This document shows positions 1-50,103 of a stretch of DNA of 50,103 nt, in pieces. The stretch lies in UHGV virus genome UHGV-0211888. One strand, 5' to 3'. The notes beneath the pieces are model-generated. The model worked only from the letters and a program-made list of their open reading frames with translations. It had not been told where the DNA came from and did no database searches. Numbering within the stretch: position 1 is the first letter of the stretch; each line of letters starts with the position of its first letter. This DNA is from a virus. The position numbers and the translations under genes were made by a program.

Positions 1-190
1 ATTTTCGCGATTTTAGGGGGTAAAAATGGCCTTTTTTGGCACTTTTTTGCCATTTTTCGCGATTTTCGGACTTGCCACTTTTTTGCCACTTTTGCCCTTT
101 TTGCCACTTTTTTTGAAAAACTTTTCAGAAATCTTCAAAAATTTTTAAGACGTTTTATAAAAGTGGCAAAAAGTGGCAATAAAATAACAG
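1..190. repeat. Iteron array, putative replication origin/control region, left part. About 8 direct TTGCCAC(T)n units at 27-114 with ~10-12 bp phasing. Two inverted GTGGCAA units at 162-180. ATTTTCGCGATTTT occurs twice (1-14, 52-65).
   Basis: Read directly from the sequence: cttgccacttttttgccacttttgccctttttgccactttttttg, then aagtggcaaaaagtggcaat. There is no ORF of 60 aa or more in 1-425. Phased T-tracts continue to about 240. Confidence 0.6.
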
Positions 191-1241: not shown

Positions 1242-2498
1242 TTAAAGAGTATGTTTATCTGACGTATCGTCTTTCTTATCAAATATCGGAGCAAATCCTT
1301 TCTCATTGAATTTCTTTTTACGTTTTAGTGTAGCCATTATGGCATTGTCAATAGTTGACTTGCTAGTCAAATGATAATACCATAGATCAATATATTTTGT
1401 ATTTAAACGATCTATACGACCGCTAGCCTGCACCATAACTTTATAAGAATAGTTCTGAGAAAAGAATATGATTGTGTCAGTAAGAACACAGTTCCAACCT
1501 TCGCAACCAGCCGTATATTCGACAAGATATGCCCAAGAATCTCCTTCAGGTATCAATTCATGCTTGTGACCATTCCACTCGGAATACTTATAATTGACCT
1601 TATTCAAAAGTCCTCTGAGTATTTCAAGCTCGTAGTCATATGAATAGAATATGATAGCCTTAGGGTGTTGCTTCAATATATCTAATACCTCAATGCATCT
1701 ACTAGGACTACTGTTAACAACTCTACGCAGAGTATAACAGTATTCACCAGCATTCTGTATTGGCAAGTTAGTATACGGGTTCCAACGATTCTGGACAATA
1801 AACTTATACTTACCCTCATCATAACTGCAATCATACCATAAATGATGCTGAACTGTACCTCTATGAAAATCCATATTAACTAGAATACTTCTTCTCATAG
1901 CAATTAGTCTTCCTTCATTTAGATATCTGTCAACCTTTGGAAACTTAGTAAATCTGCTAAATATTACGTGCTTGCTTATAAAATCTGTTTTATTACGGAA
2001 AAATCCATTAGCTATGAATACTGGAATATAATCCATCCAGGTATCTCCAGGTGTAGCAGATAGTAAAATCCACTTATTTTGCCTAGTAATCTCTAGAAAA
2101 GCTTTTGTCCAGGCTCCATAGCCGACAACTCTCTGCTCATCAAATATAAAGAAAGCATTTTTAATATTAACATATTTATGTAAATTATTCCAACTGTCAA
2201 CAATAATCTTATTGCCATTTAGTTTTTCATTAGCAGGATCAGTTGACATCTTAAACACAGACATTTCCTCTTCCCACTCAAAAGTATCTCTCTTTCTAGC
2301 AGTAGTGATTATATACAAGTCACAAGGATTGACCATCCTACGAAATGTACCAGAGTTAACCGTCCCGCCATTAAGACAATAGTAGTATGCTAAGGCAGTG
2401 CGAGATTTTCCAGATCCCACACCACCATTTAGTATACAACCGTTTTTCATATGACTGAGGGCTTGCATCTGATAGTCACGCATTCTTATCCCAGCCAT
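1242..2498 (-). CDS. SF2 (SNF2/DEAD-like) helicase, phage replication/recombination type.
   Basis: Walker A GGVGSGKS near the N-terminus, a DEQ Walker-B-like FIFDEQR, and a helicase C-terminal-like region. Across the contig junction it neighbours the VRR-NUC gene, a pairing known from phage SNF2-helicase/VRR-NUC modules. Confidence 0.6.
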   Translation of the reverse strand: MAGIRMRDYQMQALSHMKNGCILNGGVGSGKSRTALAYYYCLNGGTVNSGTFRRMVNPCDLYIITTARKRDTFEWEEEMSVFKMSTDPANEKLNGNKIIVDSWNNLHKYVNIKNAFFIFDEQRVVGYGAWTKAFLEITRQNKWILLSATPGDTWMDYIPVFIANGFFRNKTDFISKHVIFSRFTKFPKVDRYLNEGRLIAMRRSILVNMDFHRGTVQHHLWYDCSYDEGKYKFIVQNRWNPYTNLPIQNAGEYCYTLRRVVNSSPSRCIEVLDILKQHPKAIIFYSYDYELEILRGLLNKVNYKYSEWNGHKHELIPEGDSWAYLVEYTAGCEGWNCVLTDTIIFFSQNYSYKVMVQASGRIDRLNTKYIDLWYYHLTSKSTIDNAIMATLKRKKKFNEKGFAPIFDKKDDTSDKHTL

Positions 2499-2509: not shown

Positions 2510-3187
2510 TTACTTATTAGCTGGTTCGTTAGTAATACCGGATTCACCTGCAGTTGGATCTTTAACTTTAATATTAGGCGTATTAGGGACAATCTCCGGA
2601 ATGTCATTAACACTTTCATGATCCATCCAGGGAATGTCATTAACATCTTGCTGATCCATCCAGTCATCATACTTACCACCAAAGTCAATATCCTCAGTTT
2701 GGATAACATTGAGCTTCTTCAAGTAGCAAGTCTTCTTTCCGGGGAATTTACGACTCTCATAGCAGTTAACGACCATATCGCAGGTCTGAATGTCAATACT
2801 GTCAAGTTCTCCAATAGTGTTAATATCCAAAGGACGACGATTTCTCTTTCCTTTATAAGTGCTGAATAAGGTAACAACAGGAGGATAAGCAGAATTCATA
2901 TTCACAACAACATTAACAAAGTTCAACTTGACTGGTTGATCCTTGTCATCATGAATAGCATTGACTTCGACATTACGAACATTAAATCCCTGCTTAATCA
3001 TATCAGCAGCGAGTTCTTCAGAAACACAGAGTTTGAAAATTCTCTGTGAGTTTCCAAAGCGATCTTCACGACCGCTGAAATTTGGCCACAAAATAACAGC
3101 ATTATCGGCCTCAAGTAAACGATCCGTATGCCAAACGAATTTAGAATCTTTTAATGCCTCAAAGGCGATTTCAATCTTTTTTGCCAT
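2510..3187 (-). CDS. Hypothetical replication-module protein (225 aa); possibly ssDNA-binding, unverified.
   Basis: Placed between the helicase and the polymerase. I recognise no motif with confidence. Confidence 0.25.
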   Translation of the reverse strand: MAKKIEIAFEALKDSKFVWHTDRLLEADNAVILWPNFSGREDRFGNSQRIFKLCVSEELAADMIKQGFNVRNVEVNAIHDDKDQPVKLNFVNVVVNMNSAYPPVVTLFSTYKGKRNRRPLDINTIGELDSIDIQTCDMVVNCYESRKFPGKKTCYLKKLNVIQTEDIDFGGKYDDWMDQQDVNDIPWMDHESVNDIPEIVPNTPNIKVKDPTAGESGITNEPANK

Positions 3188-3211: not shown

Positions 3212-6200
3212 TTAAATAATAGTGTATATACGTGGATAGACTGGTTTGCCATCTACAATCTTCGGACCAATATATGGATCATCACTTACAAACCACTCAT
3301 AATTTCCAAATTGACTAATAGTATCAATTGCTTCATTAACGAGTGTTTCATAATATGACTTATCAATATACTGTTCCTCTGGAGTTCCAAGAACGTTTTC
3401 AGACTCGAGCCAACGATATCCTTTGGTTCCAGTTACTGCATTCATTCCCAGAGTTCCATCTTTCTTCTTTTGTTCACGATAGAGTATTCCTCCACCATGA
3501 CCAGGTTTGATAGGGCAGAACAATCCAACCCTACCAATAAACTTATAGTCATGTTCATCTAAAGCCTTACCTTCGTTCATATCCAAATACATTGCCGTCT
3601 TTACTTCTTTAGTTTCGCACATATCCTTAGCGGTTATCTGCTCATGACTAAAGCATTTTTTAAAGATATAAGGTATTTGGAATTGTAATCCGGTGGCTGT
3701 CCATGGTGTTTCATCCTTATGAGTATACTCTGGCGCATATTTTGCAATATAAGTAGAGTCATTTACAAGACACATACGATCATATGTTGCCTCATGTTCG
3801 AACGTATACCCATAACCTTGGGCAAATTTCATACAGTAATCGATGATCTCTGGTGTAGCATCCGGAATCTTAATTGAATCTGTCTTAATATGTGCTACCT
3901 TAAATCCTTTGGCAGCAACATTATCCTGAAGAGTCTTCATAAATAAGGCTCCTCTAAGAGCGACAATATTCATTTCATTAGATGATACACGGAATGGATT
4001 ATCGAAAGCTGCACTAGTCAGCCCATAAACTGAATTGATAGCAATTTTCAAAGCTTGAGACAATTTCTTAGCTCTAGTTGGATCATCCAAATATTTAGCC
4101 AGTTTGCCGTCAAACTCTTTCTTAACAACATCATATTCACCATGTTTGATATGAATACGAATATCAACTATCATAGCATACTTCTTCGTATAATCTCCGA
4201 AGAGATTCATAGCAATAATACTATGTGGATGCAACGATGCAACATCAAGTAATGCTACATTACCATACATTCCTGGTTCAGAATAAACATAACCACCAAA
4301 GCCTAAATCAATGCCTCGATACATATTATGCTTTTCATATTTATGAATTTCATCATTCCATTGTTTTACGAATTCATAGCCAGGAAAATCTTTTTTCAAT
4401 TTTTCATAGTTAGCTTCATAATTCAATTGAGGATGCTTTTCATTACCAAAAATAATCTTTGTAGTTAAACTATTTGTCGTATCGTTAACTGTCATACCTG
4501 CTAAGTCTGCTAGAATCTCACGAGCTTCAAAATCAGCTTTAGTGGCATTCCATACGGCCTCTGTACTGTTAACATCATTGTCACAATACTCAGCAACTTC
4601 TTGCCACTTATCCTCAGGTACAGGTTGGTCCCAAGGATAACCTAATTCCTGATGGTGAATACCTAGTTCAATTTCCCATTTCTTGAGAGATTGCTTTTTA
4701 GCTGCATAATCATAAATATCAGTATAAGATATATTATATGCCTCACCAAAGAATCCTTTACCATACATAATAATACTTTGAGAAAGTCTGAATAACTGCT
4801 CATTGGACCAGCCTAGACATCCTCTAGCGTACACAATATGGTTATCATATCGTCGGCAGTTAAAACCAACTAAACGATATTTGAATAGTGCTTGAATCTC
4901 TTCAGGCTTAGGATTTATCATCCTATTAACTACATTCGATCCTAACTTTTTGTAGTTGAGAAGGAATAAGTTAGGAAAGACTTCGACATCGAAGAACACA
5001 ATAGCATTCTCTGACTTCTCTGCATCAGATATACTGTCGCTTTTCCAATGTATTTTTGCTACTTTGTTAAGACAATAATCTGACTGATGCGTGCTAGCTG
5101 CAGCAAACGCCACAACTGCATTATGCAAATCACTAACATCATAAGTCATACCACTTTTGTAGCATGATTCAATAGAATCATAAATAAAGTCAACCGATGG
5201 CTTTGTATAACCACAGTATTCCTTATTGAGATTCCTAAGAATAAGTGTTCGCAATGCCTTCTCGTTTGCAACTGCCTTGAAATTTATCATTTCTTTTTTC
5301 TCCCTTAAAGGCAAACCGGAAGATATAGTTGCTATATCTTCGTCGTTACACTTAGTTAATTTACGTCTAAGCGCACTGTTGCCAGTAAATACTTTTACTT
5401 CTACATTATCTGAATATATTCTACTTAATTCAGCAGGATCACCTCCAGTATAAATATAGTGCAAATGTATGCCAGCTCCAGATTTGCTCAACTCGGCATA
5501 GGTCTTTGGCCATTTACTGGCCTCTTCAAGATTTTTCTTAAATGACTTTTTGCCGTCTTCTCCTTTGATATCAAAATCTATGACAATAAGCTTTTCAGGA
5601 ACTTTAACATAATGAAGTTTCCTAGTATCCAGATCTTTTAATGCAGTTCTTACATTAGACCATTTCATTCCAGGAACTTCCTCTTCTGTTGCATACTGAG
5701 CTGGACAATCCTTACAATAATCATCTAGTCTAGAATGTTGCTCCTTAAAAACTATCTTGTCAGAAGTTGTATCAACGACAGTCGGCTTCTGATCTTCATT
5801 CAAAATATCGGTTTTAAAGCCAATATAGTATGATCTTATCCAAACTCCATCAACCAGAACTCTCTCTTTGTATTCTTTGAAATAGTTTTTTAACTCATTC
5901 TTAAATATACGCATCGACATGGGATATGGGACTTTTGCATTGTCGCAATAAGTTTTATACATCTCCCATCCCTGCTTAAGAGAGACACTATCTTGCTGCT
6001 GGAATGTATCATAACTATCCTCTATGAAGTTATAGAAATCATTTGATTCACCCATCATTAAAGTTGGTTTATAGTTTTGATAATAATTAGGATTTTTCAA
6101 ATATATTTCTTTGCATTTATATGCAATAGCTCCATATTCAAATTTAATCCTATTCATTAACTCATCATATTTTGTCAAACTTATTCTATTACCTGTAGGT

Positions 6201-7090
6201 TGCACATCGATCAAACGTCTTAAAATACCTGACTTAGCATCAGTTATTTTAACTGGTTTATTTGTACCCATAAATAAGAAAGTATTGAACTTCATACTGT
6301 AAATAGACTTATGTTTCTCATTAACAGTCATCTTTTCATGAGATACCAAGCTATTTATAGTTGTGTTTCTTTCTATTCTAGACAAATCACCATCCTGACT
6401 AATAGCAACTAAAGGATTGGTTTTCAACTGTTCCAAAGCAAATGTAGCTGTAGATGAACCGAGCGATTCCGCATCAAATACTGAACAATAGCCATCAAAC
6501 ATACTCTGAATAATATCCAGAATAGTTGATTTACCAGTTCCAGGTGGACCATAGAACACAATAAACTTTTGCGTCTTTTTAGACGCTCCAGTTACGATTG
6601 CACCTATAGCCCACTCGAACTTATGGCGTTGCTCATCAGTATATAATTCCGAAACAAGTTCATCATAAGCCTCAGTGCTTCCAGATTCAAGAGGATATGG
6701 TAACTTATGACTGGAATAATCTTCTTTAGCAGTTTTCTGATTAGAAAATACTAATTCATTATCAAGTGGTTTAAAGTTATCACGCATCTGCTTTTGGCAA
6801 TAACGATGCCAAATGTCGATACTGCCTGACTCTGCATCCCACATATGCAGAATATGTACCCTACTATCTGCAAAACGATCCTTGTTTTTTTCTGCAAATG
6901 CATCTAATTCTGCGTCAACAGCTTTTACAAGATCTTGTTCAGATGTAGACCACGTATTCTCTTTTTCATTCCAGAAAGCATAAAAGTCGCTTCCTCTTAT
7001 CATAAGGTCTTTTGAAATTCCAATGACGAACTTAGGATAGATCTCGATTTCACCCTTTCGGGTTCTATAAGATACTATCAAGAAGTCCAT
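3212..7090 (-). CDS. Fused SF3 helicase (P4-alpha/D5-like P-loop) - AEP primase (PrimPol-like) - family B DNA polymerase with 3'-5' exonuclease, 1292 aa.
   Basis: Helicase: Walker A FYGPPGTGKST; B-like VAISQDGD; motif C FMGTN. AEP primase: motif I LIVIDFDIKG; motif II SGAGIHLHY. Exonuclease: Exo I FFDVEVF; Exo II GFNCRRYDNH; Exo III YCDNDVNS. PolB: motif A LDVASLHPHSII; motif B KIAINSVYG; motif C HIKTDSI (phi29-like DTDSI). Confidence 0.85.
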   Translation of the reverse strand: MDFLIVSYRTRKGEIEIYPKFVIGISKDLMIRGSDFYAFWNEKENTWSTSEQDLVKAVDAELDAFAEKNKDRFADSRVHILHMWDAESGSIDIWHRYCQKQMRDNFKPLDNELVFSNQKTAKEDYSSHKLPYPLESGSTEAYDELVSELYTDEQRHKFEWAIGAIVTGASKKTQKFIVFYGPPGTGKSTILDIIQSMFDGYCSVFDAESLGSSTATFALEQLKTNPLVAISQDGDLSRIERNTTINSLVSHEKMTVNEKHKSIYSMKFNTFLFMGTNKPVKITDAKSGILRRLIDVQPTGNRISLTKYDELMNRIKFEYGAIAYKCKEIYLKNPNYYQNYKPTLMMGESNDFYNFIEDSYDTFQQQDSVSLKQGWEMYKTYCDNAKVPYPMSMRIFKNELKNYFKEYKERVLVDGVWIRSYYIGFKTDILNEDQKPTVVDTTSDKIVFKEQHSRLDDYCKDCPAQYATEEEVPGMKWSNVRTALKDLDTRKLHYVKVPEKLIVIDFDIKGEDGKKSFKKNLEEASKWPKTYAELSKSGAGIHLHYIYTGGDPAELSRIYSDNVEVKVFTGNSALRRKLTKCNDEDIATISSGLPLREKKEMINFKAVANEKALRTLILRNLNKEYCGYTKPSVDFIYDSIESCYKSGMTYDVSDLHNAVVAFAAASTHQSDYCLNKVAKIHWKSDSISDAEKSENAIVFFDVEVFPNLFLLNYKKLGSNVVNRMINPKPEEIQALFKYRLVGFNCRRYDNHIVYARGCLGWSNEQLFRLSQSIIMYGKGFFGEAYNISYTDIYDYAAKKQSLKKWEIELGIHHQELGYPWDQPVPEDKWQEVAEYCDNDVNSTEAVWNATKADFEAREILADLAGMTVNDTTNSLTTKIIFGNEKHPQLNYEANYEKLKKDFPGYEFVKQWNDEIHKYEKHNMYRGIDLGFGGYVYSEPGMYGNVALLDVASLHPHSIIAMNLFGDYTKKYAMIVDIRIHIKHGEYDVVKKEFDGKLAKYLDDPTRAKKLSQALKIAINSVYGLTSAAFDNPFRVSSNEMNIVALRGALFMKTLQDNVAAKGFKVAHIKTDSIKIPDATPEIIDYCMKFAQGYGYTFEHEATYDRMCLVNDSTYIAKYAPEYTHKDETPWTATGLQFQIPYIFKKCFSHEQITAKDMCETKEVKTAMYLDMNEGKALDEHDYKFIGRVGLFCPIKPGHGGGILYREQKKKDGTLGMNAVTGTKGYRWLESENVLGTPEEQYIDKSYYETLVNEAIDTISQFGNYEWFVSDDPYIGPKIVDGKPVYPRIYTII

Positions 7091-7095
7091 ACTAT

Positions 7096-7278
7096 CTATT
7101 TCTTTTCAGTTTTAGTAGTATTAGACTTCTCTTCATCCTTTGCGACAGAAACCGTAATCACCGGTTGTTGTCTGCTTTCAAGAAAGATGCATTCAGCAAC
7201 CCCTTTAAGAACTGAAACTGCGATTGCAGTCTTAAAAGGATGTTGAACCATCCAACTAACTAAATCAAAAAATGTCAT
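7096..7278 (-). CDS. Hypothetical small protein (60 aa).
   Basis: ORF only. Confidence 0.3.
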   Translation of the reverse strand: MTFFDLVSWMVQHPFKTAIAVSVLKGVAECIFLESRQQPVITVSVAKDEEKSNTTKTEKK

Positions 7279-7296
7279 AATGTTTTATCCTCCATT

Positions 7297-7842
7297 TTAT
7301 TTTCTTTTATCTAACCACCACATGCATTGATACCATATATCAGTATTACGCATATCTGCTGGCGGATTATCTACGATAAATAAATTACCTCCGTGTCCTT
7401 CATTGTCATATAATCTGTTCAAGAATATGAACATTATACTATTAAATTTACTTTCATCCCAATTTTCATCATACATATGCTCAAGTCCAAGATTCGCTAA
7501 CATAGATAGAAACCAAATATGAGTTCTATCTCCGAAATCAGGATCTTTCATGATCTGTTTTTCGATTCTGGCAGCTAATGCCACCATCATTTCTAGCACA
7601 GAACATGTATTTTTGCATAAGGCTTCTACAAATTCTTCGTCATATTCATTTGAAGGAATCCTTTGAATAAATCTGTCTCGTAAAACTAATCCGTCTATAA
7701 TGCGGTTCTCGTCAAGATCATTAGTACTATAATACTCTGTATTTAATAAATGTTCTAGTAGTCGGGTATAGTGCTCTTGAGCCATTTGATCGGGAACTGC
7801 TAAATTAAACAGCCACTTTTTGTATTCTTTAAATCCTACCAT
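7297..7842 (-). CDS. Hypothetical protein (181 aa).
   Basis: ORF with a GGAGGA-type SD. No motif recognised. Confidence 0.4.
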   Translation of the reverse strand: MVGFKEYKKWLFNLAVPDQMAQEHYTRLLEHLLNTEYYSTNDLDENRIIDGLVLRDRFIQRIPSNEYDEEFVEALCKNTCSVLEMMVALAARIEKQIMKDPDFGDRTHIWFLSMLANLGLEHMYDENWDESKFNSIMFIFLNRLYDNEGHGGNLFIVDNPPADMRNTDIWYQCMWWLDKRK

Positions 7843-8519
7843 TAATCATCGTCTTTCGTATATAATCTAATATAATCATCGTCATCATGATATGTAGGAG
7901 GAAGAGTGTCATCATCATCTGTAGGATGAAGAGCACGGCCCTGTTCAGTACCGTCAATGTAAGTCTTTGGTGATCTAATAATCTCATAATCGAAATCATT
8001 ATTATCATTTCTGACATACACACTCTCATCATCATACAGTCCAAAAGTCTTGAGTGCTTCCGGTCCAACTTCACCGTTAATATCTTTGATGACATTGCCA
8101 AATGTGTCGGCCAATACTCCGTCCTTATAATAAATCAGCGTTTTAGCATTTTTACTACTTTCACGAAATTCTTCTGGTGTCAAGACTGTAATCTTACTGT
8201 TTGCTGGCTGTTCTTTTCTGTCTAGAACAGGACTTGCCGTTCTATACTGATCTGCTTCTTCTCTATACTTTTCGGAATAATCTACAACTGTTTCTTTTGG
8301 CTGAGTTTCCTGTAGAGTGCTTCTTGTTTCAAAAGGTTTTTGAGGAGCAGGTTTTACAGATTTCTTTTTGCTGAAATATGATTTATATGCCTCTCTAACC
8401 TCCGAAATCTCCTTATCAGAAATTTGCTTATACTTTTTAGCATAAACAAATTTTCCAATAAAGAAACCAGAAACACCACTAACAATCAAACTGCCAATTG
8501 CTAGTAATGTTTTATTCAT
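7842..8519 (-). CDS. N-terminally membrane-anchored protein with a poly-Asp C-terminus (225 aa).
   Basis: N-terminal TM LLAIGSLIVSGVSGFFIG. The C-terminus is HPTDDDDTLPPTYHDDDDYIRLYTKDDD. Confidence 0.45.
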   Translation of the reverse strand: MNKTLLAIGSLIVSGVSGFFIGKFVYAKKYKQISDKEISEVREAYKSYFSKKKSVKPAPQKPFETRSTLQETQPKETVVDYSEKYREEADQYRTASPVLDRKEQPANSKITVLTPEEFRESSKNAKTLIYYKDGVLADTFGNVIKDINGEVGPEALKTFGLYDDESVYVRNDNNDFDYEIIRSPKTYIDGTEQGRALHPTDDDDTLPPTYHDDDDYIRLYTKDDD

Positions 8520-8520
8520 A

Positions 8521-9519
8521 TTAATCTTCTCTCTTTCTTAAACTCGTAATAAATGTACGTTTACCTCTATCACCAGTAAGAATATCGCCATCAACATTGA
8601 AATCAAGCCAAACATTACGTTCGCCTCTCATCATATCGATAGCTTTTTGAGTATAATTACCAGTATGACGATCTCTTAAACCAATACTAATGTAATTATC
8701 TCCATTAGGATTCTTAGGATCATAGATCCATCCAACCACATGTGAAGCTTGCAATTGCTCATCAGAGAGAGATCCTTCAGGAATTCCTAACTCCTTATAG
8801 ACGTCATACAGGAACATATATTTCTTTGCAGCCAATTGCTGATTAAGTCCGCTCTCTAGCATTTCAAGCCATGCTTTGTTTCTAGGTCCATCTGGTTCCC
8901 AACCATAGCAAGAGGCATCCCATAATACTGCATATGGAGATCCAGATTGATACTTTTTAACTTTCTTTTTGATGGCTTGTTTGTTACCATTTTCATCTAC
9001 AATTTCTTGTTTCTCGGTAACAATACCATCGTACAAATCTTGCTCCGCTTCTTTTCCAAGCTTGCCAGCTACTCTTGAACGATACGCTTTGTAGGCAGTA
9101 TCAAGAGCTGCATATGCAGAACTTAATGCGACAACTCTACCTTGCATAATCTTATGACTTCCAACAAAACATGCAATTGCTGCAGCATAAAGAATTACAG
9201 ATGGTGCATATGTCTTAGCTAATTTAAGACCTGTTTTAGCATAAACCTTATTAAGTTCTTTCTTATTCTCAGGAATACTAACCTCACCATTTCTGACAAG
9301 ATTATCGTCATTCATTTCCGACTTAAGCTTTTGAATTCTCTCTTTAGCTTCAGGCAAATACTTCTCTGCTTTTTTCGTCTCGACAACTGCTAACACAACA
9401 GCAGCTGCAGAAGAAATAACTCCACCAATGATTAACAAAGTTGGAGAATTTTGTTTAAGCCAATATCTAGTTTTACCTATAGTATTCTGAAAACCAGTTT
9501 TAATACTATTAAAATTCAT
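8521..9519 (-). CDS. Membrane protein, paralog family B (332 aa).
   Basis: Shares its architecture with 10567..11319 and 11316..12176: a TM segment, KKAEK, a coiled coil, a second hydrophobic helix A.P..I...AA, then a variable C-terminal domain. Confidence 0.5.
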   Translation of the reverse strand: MNFNSIKTGFQNTIGKTRYWLKQNSPTLLIIGGVISSAAAVVLAVVETKKAEKYLPEAKERIQKLKSEMNDDNLVRNGEVSIPENKKELNKVYAKTGLKLAKTYAPSVILYAAAIACFVGSHKIMQGRVVALSSAYAALDTAYKAYRSRVAGKLGKEAEQDLYDGIVTEKQEIVDENGNKQAIKKKVKKYQSGSPYAVLWDASCYGWEPDGPRNKAWLEMLESGLNQQLAAKKYMFLYDVYKELGIPEGSLSDEQLQASHVVGWIYDPKNPNGDNYISIGLRDRHTGNYTQKAIDMMRGERNVWLDFNVDGDILTGDRGKRTFITSLRKRED

Positions 9520-9535
9520 CTTTTATATCCTTTCG

Positions 9536-10243
9536 TTATTGTTGTGTCAATGGAACAACTTTCGGCAAGTTAATAATATAACCGCCTGGGACAGCATTGA
9601 CTTCCATCCCTGCTAAATCATACCAACCATATTTCTGATCCGTATACTGACCATTTTGTCCTATTAGATCATAGAAATCATTCACCGAAACACTACCATA
9701 TCTTGCAATATTATCTTGCAATGCTATAGCGACTGTTTCAGCTTCACCTCTACTACCAAATACAAAATCACGTACTTGGTATATGGTATTAACAACTGGT
9801 CTATTATAACCAGGTTGCTGCATATTGATAGGAACACTAGGCTGATATAAACTTGATCTATATTGCGAATTATAATTTATAATTCCAGCATTAGATCTAT
9901 TGCCTCCAACTGATGCTCCGTTCTTACCATATAGAATAAAATCAATCGAATATTTAACCGCACCAGAGATCATATCCTTAATTTTAGGTAATATGACTTC
10001 TGATACAACAAAAGCCCCAACCGAATCAGCATCAGTAGACAAGATTTTTCCTTTAAAATTAAAGAATTTCTTTTTCTTAACTTCTGTCACGTTAGTCGTG
10101 ACGGGCTGAATCACTTTCTTATCTTGTTGAGGCGGTTGTTTCTCAAATGAGTTTTTGGGAAAATCCTGCATATATAACCTCTCTATTTTCAAAAATAAAA
10201 GGAAGGGCCATTGTTTATTCAACGATAACCCTTTCAATAACAT
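9536..10243 (-). CDS. Hypothetical protein, paralog family A (235 aa).
   Basis: Its C-terminus QKYGWYDLAGMEVNAVPGGYIINLPK matches the EQYGWKDLNGVKIEKVKTGYKIIMPE C-terminus of 12190..12969. Confidence 0.45.
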   Translation of the reverse strand: MLLKGLSLNKQWPFLLFLKIERLYMQDFPKNSFEKQPPQQDKKVIQPVTTNVTEVKKKKFFNFKGKILSTDADSVGAFVVSEVILPKIKDMISGAVKYSIDFILYGKNGASVGGNRSNAGIINYNSQYRSSLYQPSVPINMQQPGYNRPVVNTIYQVRDFVFGSRGEAETVAIALQDNIARYGSVSVNDFYDLIGQNGQYTDQKYGWYDLAGMEVNAVPGGYIINLPKVVPLTQQ

Positions 10244-10248
10244 CTTAA

Positions 10249-10497
10249 CTACTTAGTTTCAGTAGTTTCAGTTTTTGCGTCTACTACGACTGTCTTATCT
10301 GCTTTCTTACCTCTGAAGTGCTTGACAAGTTTGTAAACTCCGAATCCTAACAACCCGACACCAAGAGTGATACCTAATCCGGCACCAACCTTTTGTCCAG
10401 TTGTTAGTCCAGCTTTTGCAGCCTCACCGGCAACATCTCCAACAGTAGTCATAGCAGTATCAACTGCCTCAGTCTTAACAACATCATTCTGAACCAT
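10249..10497 (-). CDS. Small membrane protein (82 aa).
   Basis: TM GAGLGITLGVGLLGFGVYKLV. AAGGAGGAAATAAAA sits before the ATG. Confidence 0.45.
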   Translation of the reverse strand: MVQNDVVKTEAVDTAMTTVGDVAGEAAKAGLTTGQKVGAGLGITLGVGLLGFGVYKLVKHFRGKKADKTVVVDAKTETTETK

Positions 10498-10566
10498 TTT
10501 TATTTCCTCCTTATAGTTCTGGATGCTACTCCATTAGATGATATGTTTATTTTGCGAAATGTAAAA

Positions 10567-11319
10567 CTACATATTCGACAATTCTTCGGCACCTCTTGAA
10601 TACTGAATAACACCTATTGGATTGTCATCGTTGTCAAGAGCAGCATCTAATTCCACATTGATTAGACCTTTAGCTCCTGATTTATAGACAGACCATCCAA
10701 CATTATCACCGTAATCAACAGGATCGGCTCCGATTGCTTGAAGCCAGTCATTTAATGTAATAGTATCTTCTCCACCAATAGCTCGAGCATTAAGTTCATT
10801 AGCCATTTTCTGGATTAAAGTCCAATCACTTTGAATAATTTGTCCAGTAAGACTCTCTTTAAATCTTATCTGTGCTTTCCCAGTGATAATTACATTATTT
10901 GCCTTAGAATTGTCTTTCTTATTAACAGCTTCTTGAATCTGCTTTTCTTTTTCTTCTCCAATGAGCTCCTTCGTCTTTTCCTGATATTCCTGCAAGGCCG
11001 TCTCAGTCACCGTATATGCAGCAGCTAATGCTGCATTACGTTTGGCGGATACTTTATTTCCTGCTACCACACACGTTACAGCACTGGCAATTATAACTGT
11101 TGGCGCAATAGCCTCTTTCCAAACACATTTAATTGTCTCTTTGACTGGAAGTTTATCTACTTTGAGTTCTTCTTTACGTTTTTGGATATTTTTATAACCT
11201 CGAATACTTCCTCTTATTATCAGAGGAATCGATCCAATGAAACCTGCTACTCCCATCCACATGAGAATATCAGGTTCATTTTTCACTACCCAAGGTTTGA
11301 TTGTTGTTAATGGATTCAT
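10567..11319 (-). CDS. Membrane protein, paralog family B (250 aa).
   Basis: N-terminal TM, K/E-rich linker, and the AALAAAYTVTE helix shared with the 332-aa and 286-aa proteins. Confidence 0.5.
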   Translation of the reverse strand: MNPLTTIKPWVVKNEPDILMWMGVAGFIGSIPLIIRGSIRGYKNIQKRKEELKVDKLPVKETIKCVWKEAIAPTVIIASAVTCVVAGNKVSAKRNAALAAAYTVTETALQEYQEKTKELIGEEKEKQIQEAVNKKDNSKANNVIITGKAQIRFKESLTGQIIQSDWTLIQKMANELNARAIGGEDTITLNDWLQAIGADPVDYGDNVGWSVYKSGAKGLINVELDAALDNDDNPIGVIQYSRGAEELSNM

Positions 11320-12176
11320 TTTGCTGCCTCCTTGGTCTTAATTTCTACAGGTTTGAAAGTAGATTTTTCCTTATCAAATGGCAAGAAATCTCCTCCGTCT
11401 TCTGAAGCATCCTGTATCGGTTCCTCGTCAAAGGATATAACCTTATATTCATGACCTTCAGCATCTTTTGTAGGAGTTAAATTCATGTGAATCCATTCAA
11501 CTCCAGTGGTGTCATCCAAATATTCTTTTGTCCAACCCCAGCAATAATCTGCTTTACTGATAGTCTTTTCATTTATAATATCTGCTTTAGCATCGCGTAA
11601 CATATCATATATTAAACAGAAATATGCAGTTTTATTATTCTGATCAACAGTATGGATACGTTGATTCATATCAGCATATGCTCTCATCAGATCTTCAGGT
11701 TTTGCTCTAAAGAAACCGATGCGTTCGATCCAATATAGATCAGTACCGCCGTCCAAGTCCGGATCGATTAAGTCAATACCAGATTGTTTTGCATCATCTT
11801 TAGATATACTTTGAAGAATGCTCTTGTGCGTATCAATACCGAGCATGTCTTTCACCTTATCAGAATACTTATAATATCCTTGCTGAAGCACTCCTGCACA
11901 GGCAAGTAGTGATACTTCTGCCTTTTTATTCAGAATAGCACTTCCGATGATAGAGGCGATAGTAATACCGCCAATCACGCCAGAGCGAATATAATAAGGA
12001 GCTTCAGCTTTCACCAACTCCATTTTTGTAGGATTCGGCTTGTTCTTGATGAGCTCTTCTCTTTTCTTCTCAGCTTTCTTACTGTCTTTGACTGCAAAAT
12101 ATGCAGTTGCTACTGTTCCAACAGAACTTAAAAGTGCCAAACCAACTGACACAATATTTTTCGTTTTAATATCCAT
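11316..12176 (-). CDS. Membrane protein, paralog family B (286 aa).
   Basis: TM LALLSSVGTVATAYFAV, then KKAEKKREE, then a second hydrophobic helix. Confidence 0.5.
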   Translation of the reverse strand: MDIKTKNIVSVGLALLSSVGTVATAYFAVKDSKKAEKKREELIKNKPNPTKMELVKAEAPYYIRSGVIGGITIASIIGSAILNKKAEVSLLACAGVLQQGYYKYSDKVKDMLGIDTHKSILQSISKDDAKQSGIDLIDPDLDGGTDLYWIERIGFFRAKPEDLMRAYADMNQRIHTVDQNNKTAYFCLIYDMLRDAKADIINEKTISKADYCWGWTKEYLDDTTGVEWIHMNLTPTKDAEGHEYKVISFDEEPIQDASEDGGDFLPFDKEKSTFKPVEIKTKEAAK

Positions 12177-12189
12177 CTTTTAATCCTTT

Positions 12190-12969
12190 CTAATTTAATG
12201 ATATTGCTTCTGGCATAATAATTTTATAGCCGGTCTTGACCTTTTCGATTTTTACGCCATTAAGATCTTTCCAACCATATTGTTCATACTTGGAATTACT
12301 ATAGTCAATTATCTTGGTACAATTAGTACTAGAAGCGGCGAGACTAAAGTAATATTTTACCGATAATTGACCTTTTCTACTAATTTCTTGCTTGGATATC
12401 TGAAGAATGTTATTAACCGTCTCCTTATTAGAAAATATAAAATCATATATTTTTAATATATCTCTCATGAAATTGAAGTGAATAGGTCTTGTAGAAAATT
12501 TAAGCATATATGGTCCATTAATATTTACATGACTTGAATGCAAGACTCTAATCTGAAAATGATCATTCCGAATCCAACCATATTCGTCATCTTCTTGCGA
12601 TGTCGTGCGCCCGCAAATATTATAACACTCACCGCAAGTTATAAACCCACTCTTCTTGATCGTATCTTTAATAATACCCTTAGCCGTATAGGCATCACTC
12701 CGATTCTTAAAAAACAGATGTCTGAAATGGTATTCGGGTTTATCAACCTCTTCGCAATCATCCTTCGGTTCTTCATGACGATAAGCTTCGCAAGTAATGA
12801 TAAGATGTCTCTCTTCGTCAGGATTACCTTTAGAGACCAAGTAGTACTTGAATGCAGTCGGATCTGCATCATTATCGACACGCTCCCCGACGACTTGATA
12901 CTTGAACGGCATCATTGATAACATCATCAAAGCTTCACCAACCTCAACATTTCGTTTTAACCAATTCAT
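12190..12969 (-). CDS. Hypothetical Cys-cluster protein, paralog family A (probable start at 12969; the track ORF extends to 12999).
   Basis: The ATG at 12967-12969 is preceded by AAAGGAGGAAATAAAACA. This 26-nt RBS/start block is identical to 14815-14840. CxxC-like pairs are ITCEAY...C and CGEC...C. Confidence 0.45.
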   Translation of the reverse strand: MNWLKRNVEVGEALMMLSMMPFKYQVVGERVDNDADPTAFKYYLVSKGNPDEERHLIITCEAYRHEEPKDDCEEVDKPEYHFRHLFFKNRSDAYTAKGIIKDTIKKSGFITCGECYNICGRTTSQEDDEYGWIRNDHFQIRVLHSSHVNINGPYMLKFSTRPIHFNFMRDILKIYDFIFSNKETVNNILQISKQEISRKGQLSVKYYFSLAASSTNCTKIIDYSNSKYEQYGWKDLNGVKIEKVKTGYKIIMPEAISLN

Positions 12970-13082
12970 TGTTTTATTTCCTCCTTTGATTAAAATCAAG
13001 AGAACTATATTTTTATAATTCTCATAATGTAAACTGTTTATTTTGCGAATTAACCAAATCTGACTCTAATAATAAATTCAGT

Positions 13083-21200: not shown

Positions 21201-22213
21201 CTGACGGTTCCCCAGTCAGTATCAGTAGCCATTTTGAAGTAACCCTTTTTAGCAGCTACGCATTTAATAGTAGGAAAAGATTTCCAATCAATGGTAATCC
21301 AACTAGGTTCAAGAACACCTTGAATCAGGTTGACCATCTCATTATAGATCTTTTCCCGATACAAATTGTATGTATCGTCCCATACATAAACTTTATCTTT
21401 ATATTCACCATCGGTATCAACCTGAACAGGAACACCAGCTACAGGATGGAAAGTTTCCCCATTTTTTGTATAGCTAAACCAATTTTCTTGAAATGGCTTA
21501 GATCCTACAATATATACTTTGGTGAACTCTCCACCACTAGTAGTCTCGGTTGTTTCCTTCTCAGTATGATAATACGGAAATACTCCATTATAAAGGTTAT
21601 CATTGGAGACTTCGTGAGTAAGATCAGTCATATTATGGCCATATCTTACAACTGCTCCTCTATTCTTACCTCTTCTTTGGAGTATACTTACATAATAATT
21701 ATTGAATTTAACTTCTGCGTCATATTTATTCAGTAAAGAATCATCTTCTCCCATTAAAAGGGCTCGGAGATTATATGGTGCAGTAGTTTTGTAAGTTCTA
21801 GATGATAATATATCTGAAGAAATGACAAAATCATTCTTTACAACTGATCCATTTTGAATTTGCAGAATGGCATCTTGCAAACTAGTTGCAGAGAATGCTT
21901 TAACAGGAATGTCGTTCATATCATAAGAAATATGAGCAGCACTTACTGTAACTATTCCACCAATAGCATCAGTTATACTGTAAATCCTAAAAGCCTGCAT
22001 GTTGTCATACGGGTTAGGTTTACAGAAGATAATACGACCAATCTTAATTTTGTCGTAATTAGCACCCGCAATTGGATACTCCATTTCGACAGTAAACTCG
22101 TCATTGAGTTTTTCACTAACCTTACACGACAAAGCATCTTTTAGAATTCCTAACCCGAGGCTAGTAAATTCTTGTTCATTTTCTTCAAATAATACAATCA
22201 TAGTACCCACCAC
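18173..22213 (-). CDS. Tail-associated protein Tal (siphovirus tail tip; Prophage_tail-like N-terminus) with a long fibre / beta-helix-like extension, 1346 aa.
   Basis: The N-terminal domain resembles gp27-like Tal (…NGEYKL/QAFRIYSI…). Its position, directly after Dit and TMP, fits. The C-terminal part is rich in G/N/S/T repeats. Confidence 0.7.
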   Translation of the reverse strand: MVGTMIVLFEENEQEFTSLGLGILKDALSCKVSEKLNDEFTVEMEYPIAGANYDKIKIGRIIFCKPNPYDNMQAFRIYSITDAIGGIVTVSAAHISYDMNDIPVKAFSATSLQDAILQIQNGSVVKNDFVISSDILSSRTYKTTAPYNLRALLMGEDDSLLNKYDAEVKFNNYYVSILQRRGKNRGAVVRYGHNMTDLTHEVSNDNLYNGVFPYYHTEKETTETTSGGEFTKVYIVGSKPFQENWFSYTKNGETFHPVAGVPVQVDTDGEYKDKVYVWDDTYNLYREKIYNEMVNLIQGVLEPSWITIDWKSFPTIKCVAAKKGYFKMATDTDWGTVRGVGDVIFEGSIVDSGIAQNMVLYYSEVIPSKSDSSNTDATEIVDVQLDDPIIWIDTPDARKLKHNRVLMLDLTSEFDEEPTKERLKAKAEEYISKNKIGQLKHTTTLSFIDLSSTGDKSKVENTDHVEIGDTVKVIYEDAGISTELRVITTTYDALGDKYESVELGEKEDTMTSNSVQTGDGISALTNDVGYASVTTVNKLIADIVNANYIEALNAKLSKAQIAQLEVEQINVKGIIQASQFEIDSLVAKLLVADNAKITDTLEAGKIKVAGDISINSGKITIRGANGTMFLVDRDGNVTANSVSITGGNLNINDGRFEVTNDGVLTAQAAYISGTIDALNGSIGGFTIAENQLYSGTPGSAGSVLISAGNNDKELDIAGSSPKKNWAFTAGKNFGVDINGNLYAKSAFLEGILNAKGGYIANFKIENDRIGTFTNDKTYNYNSTGDGIYLGEQGLKLGDGFKVGTDGNLTLTKGSILIKDDTNKTSFEVNANGSVTANSVTITGGSFKIGEDNRFSVDTNGFLSAINAHISGATYSDGAIILGGSPNFERIHFQNESATVGSAIVGVSRLYTEKYIANKYYYSPKDTSGIYLFDKGPSFDPNKEYYEYKNGAAFYVSPEGEVRVNNDQFTISPEGEVTAQNAHIKGEITADSGKIGGWEINRFLANPDDWTAENGLFYGKPGTASSMVLAPGTTNTYTIPNLINSAKKWFILGSNKFGVDVDGNLYAINATLSGSMNITSGSINLGNGAFTVDSDGEVIIKKGGITLGSNFSVDKYGTIKAYRGYIGSLYVDKDYLSFGTSSNNTLFKIITRDTTAWVDPFKRDTQLTVSSIYSDYYKMGTQVEGANGNLSDKYWIDISGLGSVYPDTQPGLKIRWSSYDTHDTYMYISTKALENLPVLYYFGNGKKDMLYPGYYDGDGVGHFQIMILNYTSSGGTYAWDLRTYNGDQANFTVSRILTAFCYDKYTNNWFMNCTISNNTTINLKDMTSGNTYTVWALAWVKAKNQNP

Positions 22214-25200
22214 CTAGGCTTAATTTTGATTTTTAGATTAGAAAGGTCATCACCTGTAGCCTTCAAATGATATACCGTGCCGCTTTCATTTATCTTAGAA
22301 GTAAATAATGTATCACCAGAATTATAATATTTCCAATTGACAACATTATTATAACGGTAATAGCCAGCTTCTTTAATAATAAATTCTACTTCAGTTGGAT
22401 TAGATGTAATGCTATCCTGAATGATTCTTGCAGTCAAATAACGTGCAAAGTTTTCATCAGCAATCTCTACTTCTGGAAGTTCATTCTCCAAAAAATAGAT
22501 CACGGTATCATCTTTACCACTAATAGCAGGCATAATAGAATCACCGACTTTATATTTTGTCCATACTTGATTAGTATCATATCTATAATATCCATTAGCA
22601 TTAGCAATATAGGATATACGGTTAGGTGTACCATCAATTTGCTGCTGCTTAAGAATTATAGGATTTACATCGGCATCTGGTGTAGATAACCTAATATATT
22701 TAGCATTCTCTGAAAGATTGTCTAAAACTAATTCCTTATTAGTATTATTAGTACCAACAGTAATCTTATTCTTAGAATCATCATAAATTGCATATGCTAT
22801 AGATATATTATTTACACTAGCACCTATATAATATCGATATTTATTACTAATAGAATAATAGTTGCTATATTTAGATTTCGGCTTGTCTGTAGTTTGAACA
22901 AATGCGCCATTGCTATCAATATAGCCGTTAGTTTCTTGAGTAAGACTGCTAGTGACATCTTCAGGTAAATAATTGACCTTAAGCCAGTCAGGAGGATCAT
23001 TGTGCATAGTGCTTTCTGTAGATCCAGCATCTCTATACATAAATACACGATTATTATCTGGTTTGTCGAGCTTAGTCTCTAAACGATAAATATAATGTTC
23101 ATCAGTAGAAGTAACATCTTTTGAAGCTAATTTTGTAATAAGTTCGTCAGTATATGTACCTTTACTTATATCATCTGCCGTTAATTGAACCCAATACTCC
23201 ATTGCTTTAGGTGTATCATCTGAACTTCCGGAGGATATACGATAATAGCCGGGTTGTGTAATCTTAAACACAATCTTAGAATTCTCAGTATATTTAGAAG
23301 GAGACAGATGAACATATGCACCATCGACAGAAATATAAGGGTTAGACTCAAGCCATGCTGGCCATTTTGATTTTTTAGTATATTCGCCAGAATAATCAGG
23401 AGCTTCCTTAACATATCCGACCTCGAATGCTACAGTTCCATCAATGCCAACAGAATTCAATTGCTCACCTTTTTCAGCAGCCTTCCAGTTGTCAATACCG
23501 CCAGTACCTTTATCAGGAATTACTTTATAGAAACCAACATCTTTGGCAGTTAAAATAACTTTAGACAAAGATCCATCTGAAGACACCGTGAAATGAACAG
23601 CATTAGTAATATGAGTATGTTTAATACCATTATCGTCGACAGTCTCTTTCTTAACAGGTTCATATTCAGGCATAGTTGTACCTTCATAGAACTTATAAGT
23701 AAATGTGCTTGTCGTAGAAACAGAAATTCCTGACATATTAACGAAAGCTTTTTTGGATGTAGACCAACTAACCGATGCTAAGTTGATATTAGCATCTTTT
23801 TCAAAGTCAGTTTTATTCCATTGAGCTTTGCCAAACAACCAGGTTTTATCTGTCCAATAATATCCGTTTATTACTGTTCCATCTTCTTTGACACGGCATT
23901 TAATCTGATATGTTATCTTTGAAGGAGATCCATCTTTGTCGTTTTTGATAATATACGTAAGCCAATCAGGAAGATCAGTATATCCGACTTTTAATTTATG
24001 TTCTTCACCTTCATCGACAGATTCATAGTAAAGAATAGAATTTACATTAGTAGATTTTAAAGTACTTGAAATTACTGTATTTTTTGCAACAAATTTAAGC
24101 TTTTTATCTTCTGAATCTACTCTATAGAAACCATTTTGATTTGCAGTAGCTGTAACAGTTCCATCTTCATTATCATTTATTGTTAGCCAATCGGGTACGG
24201 TTCCATTATTATCAACAGCTGTGCCAGTGAATGTGTAATTACTACCATAATTATTAAGTAAGGTGTTAAACGATTGGAAAGTATATGATTCAGACTTTGA
24301 ATCGATTAACGCTTGAAGCGAAGAAGCCAAATATGATTCCTGCTTAGAAGATAGCAATGAATCGTACTTTCTAATGAAAAATGACTCCTGCTTTAGTTTC
24401 TGAATAGCTGCATAGACTTTATATTCAGAACTAACGGTTTTTTGACTCGCTGTAAGTTTAGAATTATAAGAATCTAATCTAGTATTTTCCAGAGTATATT
24501 TTTTGAACTCAATCTCATTAGTACCTTTACCAAATCTAGGAAAAGGTGTCCCATTAAGATTGACATTTCCGTAAATATCTCTATTATCACTACTAGTTAC
24601 AGTCTGTTCATCAGAATCGATAGTAACATCACCAGAATATTTCTGAAAAGTAATAATACTACGTTCAATAGTCTCAGTTATAGTATCTGAATCATCATTA
24701 CCCTTAGAATTTCCGGCATCATTCGAAACTGACATCATTAAAACCTTATCAAGATTTTCAATACTTTCAGTATCTATGCCCTCGATAGAAATAGTAGGCA
24801 ATGATATATAATTATACTCGCTCTCCATCTTGGCTTTAGGTCCATTGAATACTGTTGCTACATCTCCTGATTTAAGATAACGTTGTGGTTTGCAATCGAA
24901 TTGAATATTAATGGTACCAGCCTTAGACCAATAATCTGTAAAGGATCCAGACATATGAAAGGTAGCTTTACGATACACTTCAGTATCATAAGTATCTTCC
25001 AATTTTGCATAAGATCCTTTAGCAGAATTGAGCCAATTTAAGACTTTTTCAAAATTGTCGTAATATCCAGTCTTCGGCATATACCATAATGCTATAGAAT
25101 ATTCTCTTGTAGTATTTTTGAAGCATTTCTTATCTACAGCAATATCACCATTACGTCCAGGTATATGAGTAATTATGATGTCTCTATCAGGAAACGTATA

Positions 25201-25278
25201 AACAGGAGGAGTTTGGACAACTAATCCAAAATCCTCTGAAGACTTACCATTAAATGTAAAACTTCCAGATTTGATCAT
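22198..25278 (-). CDS. Distal tail protein Dit (Sipho_tail-like N-terminus) with a large C-terminal extension, 1026 aa.
   Basis: The N-terminus FTFNGKSSEDFGLVV...IPGRNGD matches the Dit-family pattern. It sits immediately downstream of the TMP, and its start overlaps the TMP stop. Confidence 0.7.
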   Translation of the reverse strand: MIKSGSFTFNGKSSEDFGLVVQTPPVYTFPDRDIIITHIPGRNGDIAVDKKCFKNTTREYSIALWYMPKTGYYDNFEKVLNWLNSAKGSYAKLEDTYDTEVYRKATFHMSGSFTDYWSKAGTINIQFDCKPQRYLKSGDVATVFNGPKAKMESEYNYISLPTISIEGIDTESIENLDKVLMMSVSNDAGNSKGNDDSDTITETIERSIITFQKYSGDVTIDSDEQTVTSSDNRDIYGNVNLNGTPFPRFGKGTNEIEFKKYTLENTRLDSYNSKLTASQKTVSSEYKVYAAIQKLKQESFFIRKYDSLLSSKQESYLASSLQALIDSKSESYTFQSFNTLLNNYGSNYTFTGTAVDNNGTVPDWLTINDNEDGTVTATANQNGFYRVDSEDKKLKFVAKNTVISSTLKSTNVNSILYYESVDEGEEHKLKVGYTDLPDWLTYIIKNDKDGSPSKITYQIKCRVKEDGTVINGYYWTDKTWLFGKAQWNKTDFEKDANINLASVSWSTSKKAFVNMSGISVSTTSTFTYKFYEGTTMPEYEPVKKETVDDNGIKHTHITNAVHFTVSSDGSLSKVILTAKDVGFYKVIPDKGTGGIDNWKAAEKGEQLNSVGIDGTVAFEVGYVKEAPDYSGEYTKKSKWPAWLESNPYISVDGAYVHLSPSKYTENSKIVFKITQPGYYRISSGSSDDTPKAMEYWVQLTADDISKGTYTDELITKLASKDVTSTDEHYIYRLETKLDKPDNNRVFMYRDAGSTESTMHNDPPDWLKVNYLPEDVTSSLTQETNGYIDSNGAFVQTTDKPKSKYSNYYSISNKYRYYIGASVNNISIAYAIYDDSKNKITVGTNNTNKELVLDNLSENAKYIRLSTPDADVNPIILKQQQIDGTPNRISYIANANGYYRYDTNQVWTKYKVGDSIMPAISGKDDTVIYFLENELPEVEIADENFARYLTARIIQDSITSNPTEVEFIIKEAGYYRYNNVVNWKYYNSGDTLFTSKINESGTVYHLKATGDDLSNLKIKIKPRWWVL

Positions 25279-49989: not shown

Positions 49990-50103
<114 letters not shown>

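Follow-up and report, generated by a model that had tools for sequence, protein, structure and literature searches.

A HelPrimPolB-family gene probably encoding a one-chain phage replicase in the siphovirus-like genome UHGV-0211888

The virus genome UHGV-0211888, analysed here as one stretch of 50,103 nucleotides (the window), contains an open reading frame (ORF) of 1292 amino acids (aa) for which a first-pass annotation had proposed a superfamily 3 (SF3) helicase, an archaeo-eukaryotic primase (AEP), a 3′–5′ exonuclease and a family B DNA polymerase (PolB) in a single chain. The question raised by this locus is whether all of these modules are indeed present in one genuine gene and, if so, what kind of protein they would make up. 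The window corresponds to a siphovirus-like genome in which every gene runs on the same strand, and conserved active-site residues together with predicted folds make it very probable that the gene encodes a siphovirus-type phage replicase of the HelPrimPolB family. By sequence, the protein is a moderately divergent member of this family, in which helicase, primase and proofreading DNA polymerase are fused; the architecture itself is already described, named and widespread, and only this copy is new. The proposed module order was borne out by hidden Markov model matches, profile searches, two structure predictions with fold search, and residue conservation.

Translation of the ORF yielded a single unbroken frame (ORF table and translation), with every motif quoted for it in place. 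These comprise GPPGTGKS (residues 181–188) in the helicase region, DFDIKG (505–510) and SGAGIHLHY (537–545) in the primase region, DVE (701–703), YDN (748–750) and YCDND (835–839) as exonuclease motifs, and DVASLHPHS (949–957), KIAINSVYG (1015–1023) and KTDSI (1069–1073) as polymerase motifs. Given the window G+C content of ~35%, stop codons would make up ~7% of random codons, so that an open frame of 1292 codons cannot be attributed to chance (probability ~1e-42 by our own arithmetic from base composition). The ATG start (Table 1) is likewise corroborated, since homologues start with the same M(L)DF N-terminus.

The assignment to HelPrimPolB follows from orthology with gp55 of Lactococcus phage 1706 (locus L001), the type example with which the SF3-AEP-PolB fusion was first described in 2016 (Kazlauskas 2016, PMC4889955). 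A BLASTP comparison of both proteins returned a single colinear alignment with 520/1318 identities (39%, E=0). The gp55 protein has the same SF3 helicase-AEP/PrimPol-PolB order, apparently the same divergent motif C, and the same PHROG, and differs from the window protein only by sequence divergence, its insertion near the C-terminal thumb region being longer. Residues 1–1274 of the window protein matched positions 1–1291 of the 1304 in the profile of phrog_4210 ('DNA polymerase', E=0; PHROGs). The group was subsequently named HelPrimPolB and placed in the EpsilonN-like PolB clade as a divergent group that is common in metagenomes and shows profound MotifC and KxY differences from other EpsilonN-like PolBs (Kazlauskas 2020, PMC7544198). 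In the window protein, the only putative candidate for the KxY motif is the conserved K1144 in FKKCF.

A tblastn search of the protein against 50,697 phage records further revealed 429 matching records, 252 of which had one place covering at least 80% of the protein. The nearest isolate sequence was the 'helicase/polymerase' of Faecalibacterium phage FP_oengus (59.7% identity), followed by 'DNA primase/polymerase' genes of Arthrobacter, Gordonia, Streptomyces, Curtobacterium and Rhodococcus phages (44–50% identity). In hundreds of actinophage genomes, the label 'DNA primase/polymerase' is in fact routinely given to proteins of this family and, with the fusion reported in 2016 and named since, the gene adds little as a discovery.

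Along the chain, the helicase (36–436) precedes the AEP (451–680) and the PolB (689–1258). The first-pass annotation had regarded four activities in one polypeptide, with the helicase before the primase, as unusual. For the order, this agrees with the primase being N-terminal in 94% of primase-helicase fusions (Kazlauskas 2016, PMC4889955); the architecture is not new, having been described in 2016 and named in 2020. Another triple fusion, Pas55 of Actinoplanes phage phiAsp2, follows the same one-chain coupling logic with an SF3 helicase, a DnaG primase and a PolA (PMC4889955), but by its description differs from the window protein in having a non-homologous primase of the DnaG/TOPRIM type and a polymerase of family A.

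Not all modules were recognised by the same means. Pfam alone only recognised the helicase (DUF5906) above its cut-off, while a search of solved structures with the single sequence only yielded marginal matches to Pol II. A profile of close relatives (60–85% identity) still reached neither helicase nor AEP domain in the Protein Data Bank, and a profile of 55 representatives (37–58% identity to the query, from clusters at 50% identity) was needed to reach the PriRep5 protein of the Staphylococcus aureus pathogenicity island (SaPI) SaPI5 and the NrS-1 protein. Assigning the AEP domain required structure prediction.

For the helicase module, the DUF5906 match covered residues 179–292 (7.8e-14), and was accompanied by matches to a P4-family primase C-terminal domain (residues 160–388, 1.5e-15; NCBIfam) and to phrog_1156 ('DNA primase', residues 59–436). 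Positions 36–436 of the 55-member profile aligned to residues 378–779 of SaPI5 PriRep5 (7OLA, E=4e-15), and this profile also matched the helicase region of NrS-1 (6K9C, E=3.5e-6). PriRep5 was the best match in both structural and profile comparisons, in line with a D5-type helicase fold that has N- and C-terminal flanking domains, and the beta-rich and helical N-terminal domain corresponds to the region that precedes the ATPase in D5-type primase-helicases. Conservation was examined among 109 full-length diverse representatives (clustered at 50% identity), with the query added to give 110 sequences. Residues G181, G186 and K187-S/T of Walker A turned out to be essentially invariant, D233 of Walker B was acidic (D or E) in 110/110 sequences, N277 of motif C (sensor 1) was present in 110/110, and the arginine pair R291/R292 in 109–110/110. 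Both this motif conservation and the PriRep5 profile match support the claim of a P4-alpha/D5-like SF3 helicase with motifs A, B and C.

The proteins that resemble residues 36–436 are PriRep5, vaccinia D5 and C962R of African swine fever virus, and the resemblance extends over the N-terminal domain, the SF3 ATPase and the winged-helix region. In PriRep5 and D5-type proteins, however, the primase is N-terminal to the helicase and there is no polymerase, whereas the window protein has its primase after the helicase and a PolB added behind it. Within the region directly behind the ATPase, AlphaFold2 (AF2) predicted three helices followed by a beta-hairpin. Residues 348–408 gave a sub-threshold Pfam match to Pox_D5 (8.9e-4), and positions 351–432 of the family profile matched the DNA-binding winged-helix domain of RFX5 (E=0.0046). 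The whole region also falls inside the part of the protein that aligned to PriRep5.

The AEP module was approached by modelling residues 430–690, because no AEP family was found in the protein by Pfam at E <= 1 and the PHROG primase match was weak (phrog_3022, residues 475–550, 2.4e-4). The resulting model had a predicted local distance difference test (pLDDT) score of 85, and its ten best Foldseek matches were all pRN1 or NrS-1 prim-pols (probability 0.96–1.0, E 3e-5 to 1e-3), with the next match only at E ~0.5. The alignments to the pRN1 constructs 3m1m and 9aam spanned 295–305 columns. AEP motifs are defined as hhhDhD/E (I), sxH (II) and hD/E (III) (PMC5862659), and the corresponding LIVIDFD, G540-I-H542 and V563-E564 each lie on a predicted beta-strand and are at least 97% conserved in the 109 representatives. 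The model thus supports a Prim-Pol type AEP fold for residues 451–680, nearest to pRN1 and NrS-1, and adds an intact motif III to the motifs I and II that had been proposed earlier. The predicted four-helix bundle at the end of this region possibly corresponds to the helix-bundle domain in pRN1-type primases.

An exhaustive search with the AEP region returned 447 clusters at 50% identity, of which the 150 best mostly represent proteins of ~1200–1500 aa with the domain at ~420–750 (shorter entries are possibly fragments), so this AEP variant seems to be found mainly inside the HelPrimPolB architecture. The NrS-1 protein, at 13–17% sequence identity, differs from the window protein in having the AEP before the helicase, in lacking a PolB, and in using the AEP itself for polymerisation.

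The remainder of the chain matched phrog_1252 ('DNA polymerase', residues 689–1258, 6e-44). All residues of the ExoI (DxE), ExoII (Nx2-3[F/Y]D) and ExoIII (Yx3D) motifs are in place and at least 97% conserved among the 109 representatives, which upholds the three 3′–5′ exonuclease motifs of the first-pass annotation and, judged from these motifs, makes the exonuclease an intact one of the DEDDy type. Among solved structures, the family profiles matched E. coli Pol II (2e-6 to 2e-5), archaeal PolBs and Pol alpha, and NCBIfam returned DNA polymerase II (2.7e-6). Family profile residues 932–1074 aligned motif by motif with residues 403–552 of E. coli Pol II. In this alignment, motif A reads LLDVASLHPHS against VLDYKSLYPSI in Pol II, with a canonical Asp, and motif B reads KIAINSVYG against KIIMNAFYG, and is canonical as well. 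For E. coli Pol II and the archaeal PolBs, the three motifs of palm and fingers (A, B and C) can be aligned, at a very distant similarity (E ~1e-5 to 1e-6).

As judged from sequence and modelling, four catalytic modules with conserved active-site residues are present. At least 97% of the 109 representatives retain the catalytic residues of all of them, which marks these residues as being under purifying selection across the HelPrimPolB family. Mean identity to the window protein among 37 close relatives amounted to 57–68% for the domains, but only 22% for the linker between helicase and AEP. Since this linker is also poorly conserved among the diverse representatives and has a pLDDT <50 in both structure models (Table 1), the pattern fits folded modules on a flexible tether, with no module decaying.

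Extrapolating from SaPI PriRep5 and Rep1, vaccinia D5, NrS-1 gp28, pRN1 ORF904 and E. coli Pol II, a mechanism can be proposed for such a protein. The initiator-helicase PriRep5 of SaPI5 forms hexamers, loads itself and has 3′→5′ polarity, and its C-terminal winged-helix domain binds iterons of 5–6 nucleotides (nt) in opposite orientations around an AT-rich centre (PMC9371898). By analogy with PriRep5 and Rep1, we infer that the window protein would likewise form a hexameric ring with 3′→5′ unwinding. The helicase module would assemble as this ring at the origin, load itself there through the winged-helix domain, and move along the leading-strand template with as many as six primase and polymerase units tethered to it. 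Primers would then be laid on the displaced strand by the tethered AEP domains and extended with proofreading by the PolB domains, likewise tethered, and a neighbouring single-stranded DNA (ssDNA)-binding protein would coat the displaced strand. The primers might be made of DNA, as in NrS-1, since the nearest AEP structures are primase-polymerases and NrS-1 primes with deoxynucleoside triphosphates (dNTPs). DNA primers would also fit the lack of recognisable primer-removal genes. Clamp, clamp-loading, ligation and primer-removal steps would presumably be dispensed with or supplied by host enzymes.

A number of points weigh against this picture. First, what is proposed for oligomeric state, polarity, primer chemistry and coupling is extrapolated throughout from the systems above, and the winged-helix assignment on which self-loading depends is a weak one, being the least secure of all domain calls made from sequence and model. 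Second, PHROG and Pfam scans recognised no clamp, clamp loader, ligase, or ribonuclease H/flap endonuclease (RNase H/FEN) in the window, an absence that amounts to a lack of PHROG and Pfam matches while several neighbouring genes are of unassigned function. Third, the polymerase may behave unlike textbook PolBs, because its motif C is without the first Asp and a His occupies the steric gate. More specifically, motif C reads HIKTDS against YGDTDS in Pol II, with Lys replacing the first Asp family-wide, and His954 (codon 4229–4231) is found, again family-wide, at the position of the PolB steric-gate Tyr, whereas E. coli Pol II and archaeal PolBs have DTDS and the Tyr. His954 might change sugar discrimination. 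The motif C deviation is a published hallmark of HelPrimPolB that is also seen in active primer-independent PolBs (PMC7544198).

An array of TTGCCAC/GTGGCAA repeats at the window ends is a candidate origin or operator. TTGCCAC occurs 10 times in the window versus 4.4 times expected, with 7 exact and 4 one-mismatch copies located within ~290 base pairs (bp) spanning both window ends. Plus-strand copies at 36–107 are followed by an AT-rich stretch (108–162) and minus-strand copies (163–179), and further copies are found at 50000/50008 and, beyond an uninterrupted A/T run, at 50070/50078. The repeat blocks thereby alternate in orientation, with spacers of 40–90 bp. Because the genes at both window ends are adjacent in the related genomes L004 (15589–16313), L006 (14526–15625) and L009 (17080–17663), the array constitutes one intergenic region. 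The same layout is present at the same position in these relatives, although with other repeats: at least 6 copies of GTGTCAA in L009, at least 6 of TGTCAA in L006, and at least 5 of TTG[ACG]CAC in L004. The A/T run (43 nt, 50027–50069) includes a T24 homopolymer and has repeat copies on both sides; it is a possible DNA-unwinding element, or else a homopolymer prone to assembly error.

The array has the layout of SaPI-type origins, namely short iterons in opposite orientation about an AT-rich region, and this match makes the cooperation with the iteron array suggested in the first-pass annotation reasonable. A link between array and HelPrimPolB is plausible by analogy with SaPI initiator-helicases, and gains some support from the homology to SaPI Rep helicases that bind iterons. 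Nevertheless, the array is located ~3 kb downstream of the HelPrimPolB gene rather than adjoining it, past four more ORFs, and this distance speaks against regarding the origin reading as settled. As the repeats differ among relatives, a hint of co-evolution between winged-helix region and iterons was looked for, but the idea was dropped as the region is no more divergent (63% identity) than the other domains (57–68%).

Alternatively, the array might be a promoter/operator cluster or a packaging-recognition site rather than an origin bound by the protein, a reading that comes close to an even call. The repeat resembles the –35 hexamer of sigma-70 promoters, relatives carry TTGACA(C) at the same place, and the array lies directly upstream of an operon with a 1031-aa phrog_4291 protein bearing Sigma70_r4/helix-turn-helix (HTH)-like segments. 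Given this –35-like motif, the Sigma70_r4/HTH protein in the adjacent operon and the ~3 kb distance, a transcriptional role would be about as likely as an origin role. A packaging site would agree with the HNH endonuclease near the terminase gene, and the contig ends could adjoin such a site. On the other hand, the alternating blocks and AT-rich spacers match SaPI origins bound by a winged-helix domain of the PriRep5 type, and repeats in both orientations are unexpected for simple promoters since all genes run in one direction. Moreover, a sigma-70 promoter scan of the repeat region only gave 9-of-12 matches, which is not clearly above chance.

Taking the origin reading of the array together with the mechanism proposed above, the hexamer would be a self-sufficient machine from origin to fork. 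Its winged-helix domain would read the GTG(G/T)CAA inverted-repeat/AT-rich element, the ring would load itself, the AEP would prime (possibly with DNA and thus without primer excision), and the PolB, with its His gate and one-Asp motif C, would extend without a clamp. We consider this full scenario, built on analogy, as tentative and rather doubtful. If true, it would be the first demonstrated case of a working initiator-helicase-primase-polymerase in a single polypeptide. HelPrimPolB is in any case a widespread, compact and apparently complete replication enzyme, on any member of which our literature searches for biochemistry returned nothing relevant, and in the window it is found beside a conserved candidate origin. 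A working helicase, primase and proofreading polymerase in one chain would be a model for the coupling of these activities at the fork, and such a replicase could also serve as a tool for isothermal DNA amplification.

It is improbable that one of the modules is used outside the role assigned to it above, with either the PolB starting chains by itself and the AEP acting in repriming or lesion skipping, or the AEP performing most of the synthesis. This would agree with NrS-1 and pRN1, the proteins with the nearest AEP structures, being primase-polymerases able to extend DNA, and with the unusual His at the steric-gate position. Yet AEP and PolB strictly co-occur and are co-conserved in one chain, which is most simply explained by primer hand-off between both, and no similarity to primer-independent PolBs turned up, although no search was aimed at them.

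Far less probable still is a protein-primed PolB of the phi29 kind that would replicate from a terminal protein at the genome ends. This possibility stems from the KTDSI string, which the first-pass annotation had likened to the phi29 motif C without any tool result behind it. While the strings that had been read as PolB motifs A, B and C are present, the phi29-like label was not supported. Indeed, the profiles returned Pol II, archaeal PolBs and Pol alpha, and no phi29-type chain appeared among solved structures, whether the close-relative profile was run to E=10 or the diverse one to E=1. Pfam did not find any DNA_pol_B family in the protein at E up to 1, and no terminal-protein PHROG was found among the scanned window ORFs of at least 90 aa. 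A phi29-type PolB was consequently rejected as closest relative, only generic PolB motifs being common to both. Published phylogeny furthermore places HelPrimPolB in the EpsilonN-like clade of RNA/DNA-primed PolBs (PMC7544198), and the polymerase is fused to a conserved primase domain that is predicted to be active. Separately, stand-alone PolBs of Enterococcus, Staphylococcus, Pseudomonas and Stenotrophomonas siphophages were found to match the window protein only within residues 659–1116 (22–25% identity, given over residues 693–1100), and may be unfused relatives of its polymerase module.

Finally, a sequencing or assembly error that fused separate helicase-primase and PolB genes can be dismissed, and the frame is genuine: although some database representatives are short (~650–1050 aa, possibly contig-end fragments), the identical protein was called on 3 contigs, its 99%-identical cluster holds 54 member sequences, the 252 phage genomes with a near full-length match were sequenced independently and have the same unbroken architecture, and 109 of the 150 best representatives (50% identity clusters) reach at least 1200 aa.

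Table 1. Coordinates in the window of the HelPrimPolB gene, its modules and surrounding features
Feature	Coordinates	Strand	Basis
HelPrimPolB gene, whole	3212..7090	-	1292 codons + stop, ATG start; ORF list, translation, full-length phrog_4210 match
N-terminal beta-rich and helical domain, residues 1-139	6674..7090	-	AF2 pLDDT ~85-95; approximate boundaries
SF3 (D5/P4-alpha type) ATPase core, residues 140-345	6056..6673	-	Walker A G181-K187, D233, N277, R291/R292
Winged-helix-like domain, residues 346-428, candidate origin-binding	5807..6055	-	AF2, weak Pox_D5 and RFX5 matches
Variable linker, residues 429-450	5741..5806	-	22% mean identity; column conservation 0.18; pLDDT <50
AEP/Prim-Pol catalytic domain (predicted), residues 451-600	5291..5740	-	Motifs I (D505, D507), II (G540-I-H542), III (V563-E564)
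Four-helix bundle (predicted), residues 601-680	5051..5290	-	Helices 610-621, 633-646, 653-664, 670-678 in model
PolB 3′-5′ exonuclease domain, residues ~690-900	4391..5023	-	ExoI D701/E703, ExoII N744/Y748/D749, ExoIII Y835/D839; approximate boundaries
PolB polymerase domain, residues ~901-1292	3215..4390	-	Motif A D949+H954; B K1015/N1019/Y1022/G1023; C H1067-I-K-T-D1071-S
ssDNA-binding/single-strand annealing protein, likely partner	2510..3187	-	PF24083 7e-19; phrog_4787 2.4e-22
SF2 helicase gene, downstream	1242..2498	-	phrog_62 'DNA helicase' 6.6e-60; weak ResIII match
Three conserved upstream genes (60, 181, 225 aa)	7096..8519	-	181 aa = phrog_4678; 225 aa = phrog_4695
TTGCCAC/GTGGCAA repeat blocks with AT-rich spacer, candidate origin or operator array, first part	36..179	.	
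Array continuation across window ends, including 43-nt pure A/T run 50027-50069	50000..50084	.	

The genes surrounding HelPrimPolB form a replication neighbourhood that recurs in 6 relatives with minor additions or omissions, and loosely in FP_oengus. In the window, the genes for the ssDNA-binding/annealing protein and the SF2 helicase come immediately downstream of HelPrimPolB, and the three small genes immediately upstream. In 5/6 of these relatives, the next gene or the next but one after HelPrimPolB is a Phage_ssDNA_bind gene, and in FP_oengus an ssDNA-binding protein is encoded two genes downstream. Several relatives have a similar-sized gene at the position of the superfamily 2 (SF2) helicase. 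Upstream, two larger genes (~180–200 aa, then ~200–230 aa) precede the HelPrimPolB gene in 6/6 relatives, and a small gene (50–70 aa) is found between this pair and the HelPrimPolB gene in 4/6. The three upstream genes possibly encode replisome accessory factors. Elsewhere in the window, genes were recognised for the terminase large subunit, portal, a protease-capsid fusion, tail proteins, tape measure, holin, HNH endonuclease and an exonuclease.

The exonuclease (48814–49455, minus strand) matches phrog_3953, with a weak match to DUF2800. Together with the PF24083 protein it flanks the repeat region, and both look like a recombination pair. The neighbouring 1031-aa protein (45719–48814, minus strand) is a full-length match to phrog_4291 ('RNA-dependent RNA polymerase', E=0), shows its Sigma70_r4/HTH-type matches near both ends, and is encoded just downstream of the repeat region in L004, L006 and L009. 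The protein is a possible single-subunit RNA polymerase of the phage.

Further minor observations concern the remainder of the genome, where all features listed here are on the minus strand. A paralogue cluster at 8521–12999 comprises three DUF6353 genes (8521–9519, 10567–11319 and 11316–12176) and two phrog_4079 genes (9536–10243 and 12190–12999), and at least 3 DUF6353 copies are found upstream of the replicase in relatives as well. A 1026-aa ORF (22198–25278), for which no PHROG or Pfam match was found at the thresholds used, is located between the genes for the tape measure and a 1346-aa tail protein. The prohead protease and major capsid protein are fused (37358–39097; Peptidase_S78 and Phage_capsid), and four Big_2 Ig-like repeats occur in a 700-aa protein (33215–35317), the N-terminal half of which matches the capsid part of the protease-capsid PHROG. 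Two major-tail-protein paralogues are encoded in tandem at 35331–35999 and 36017–36691.

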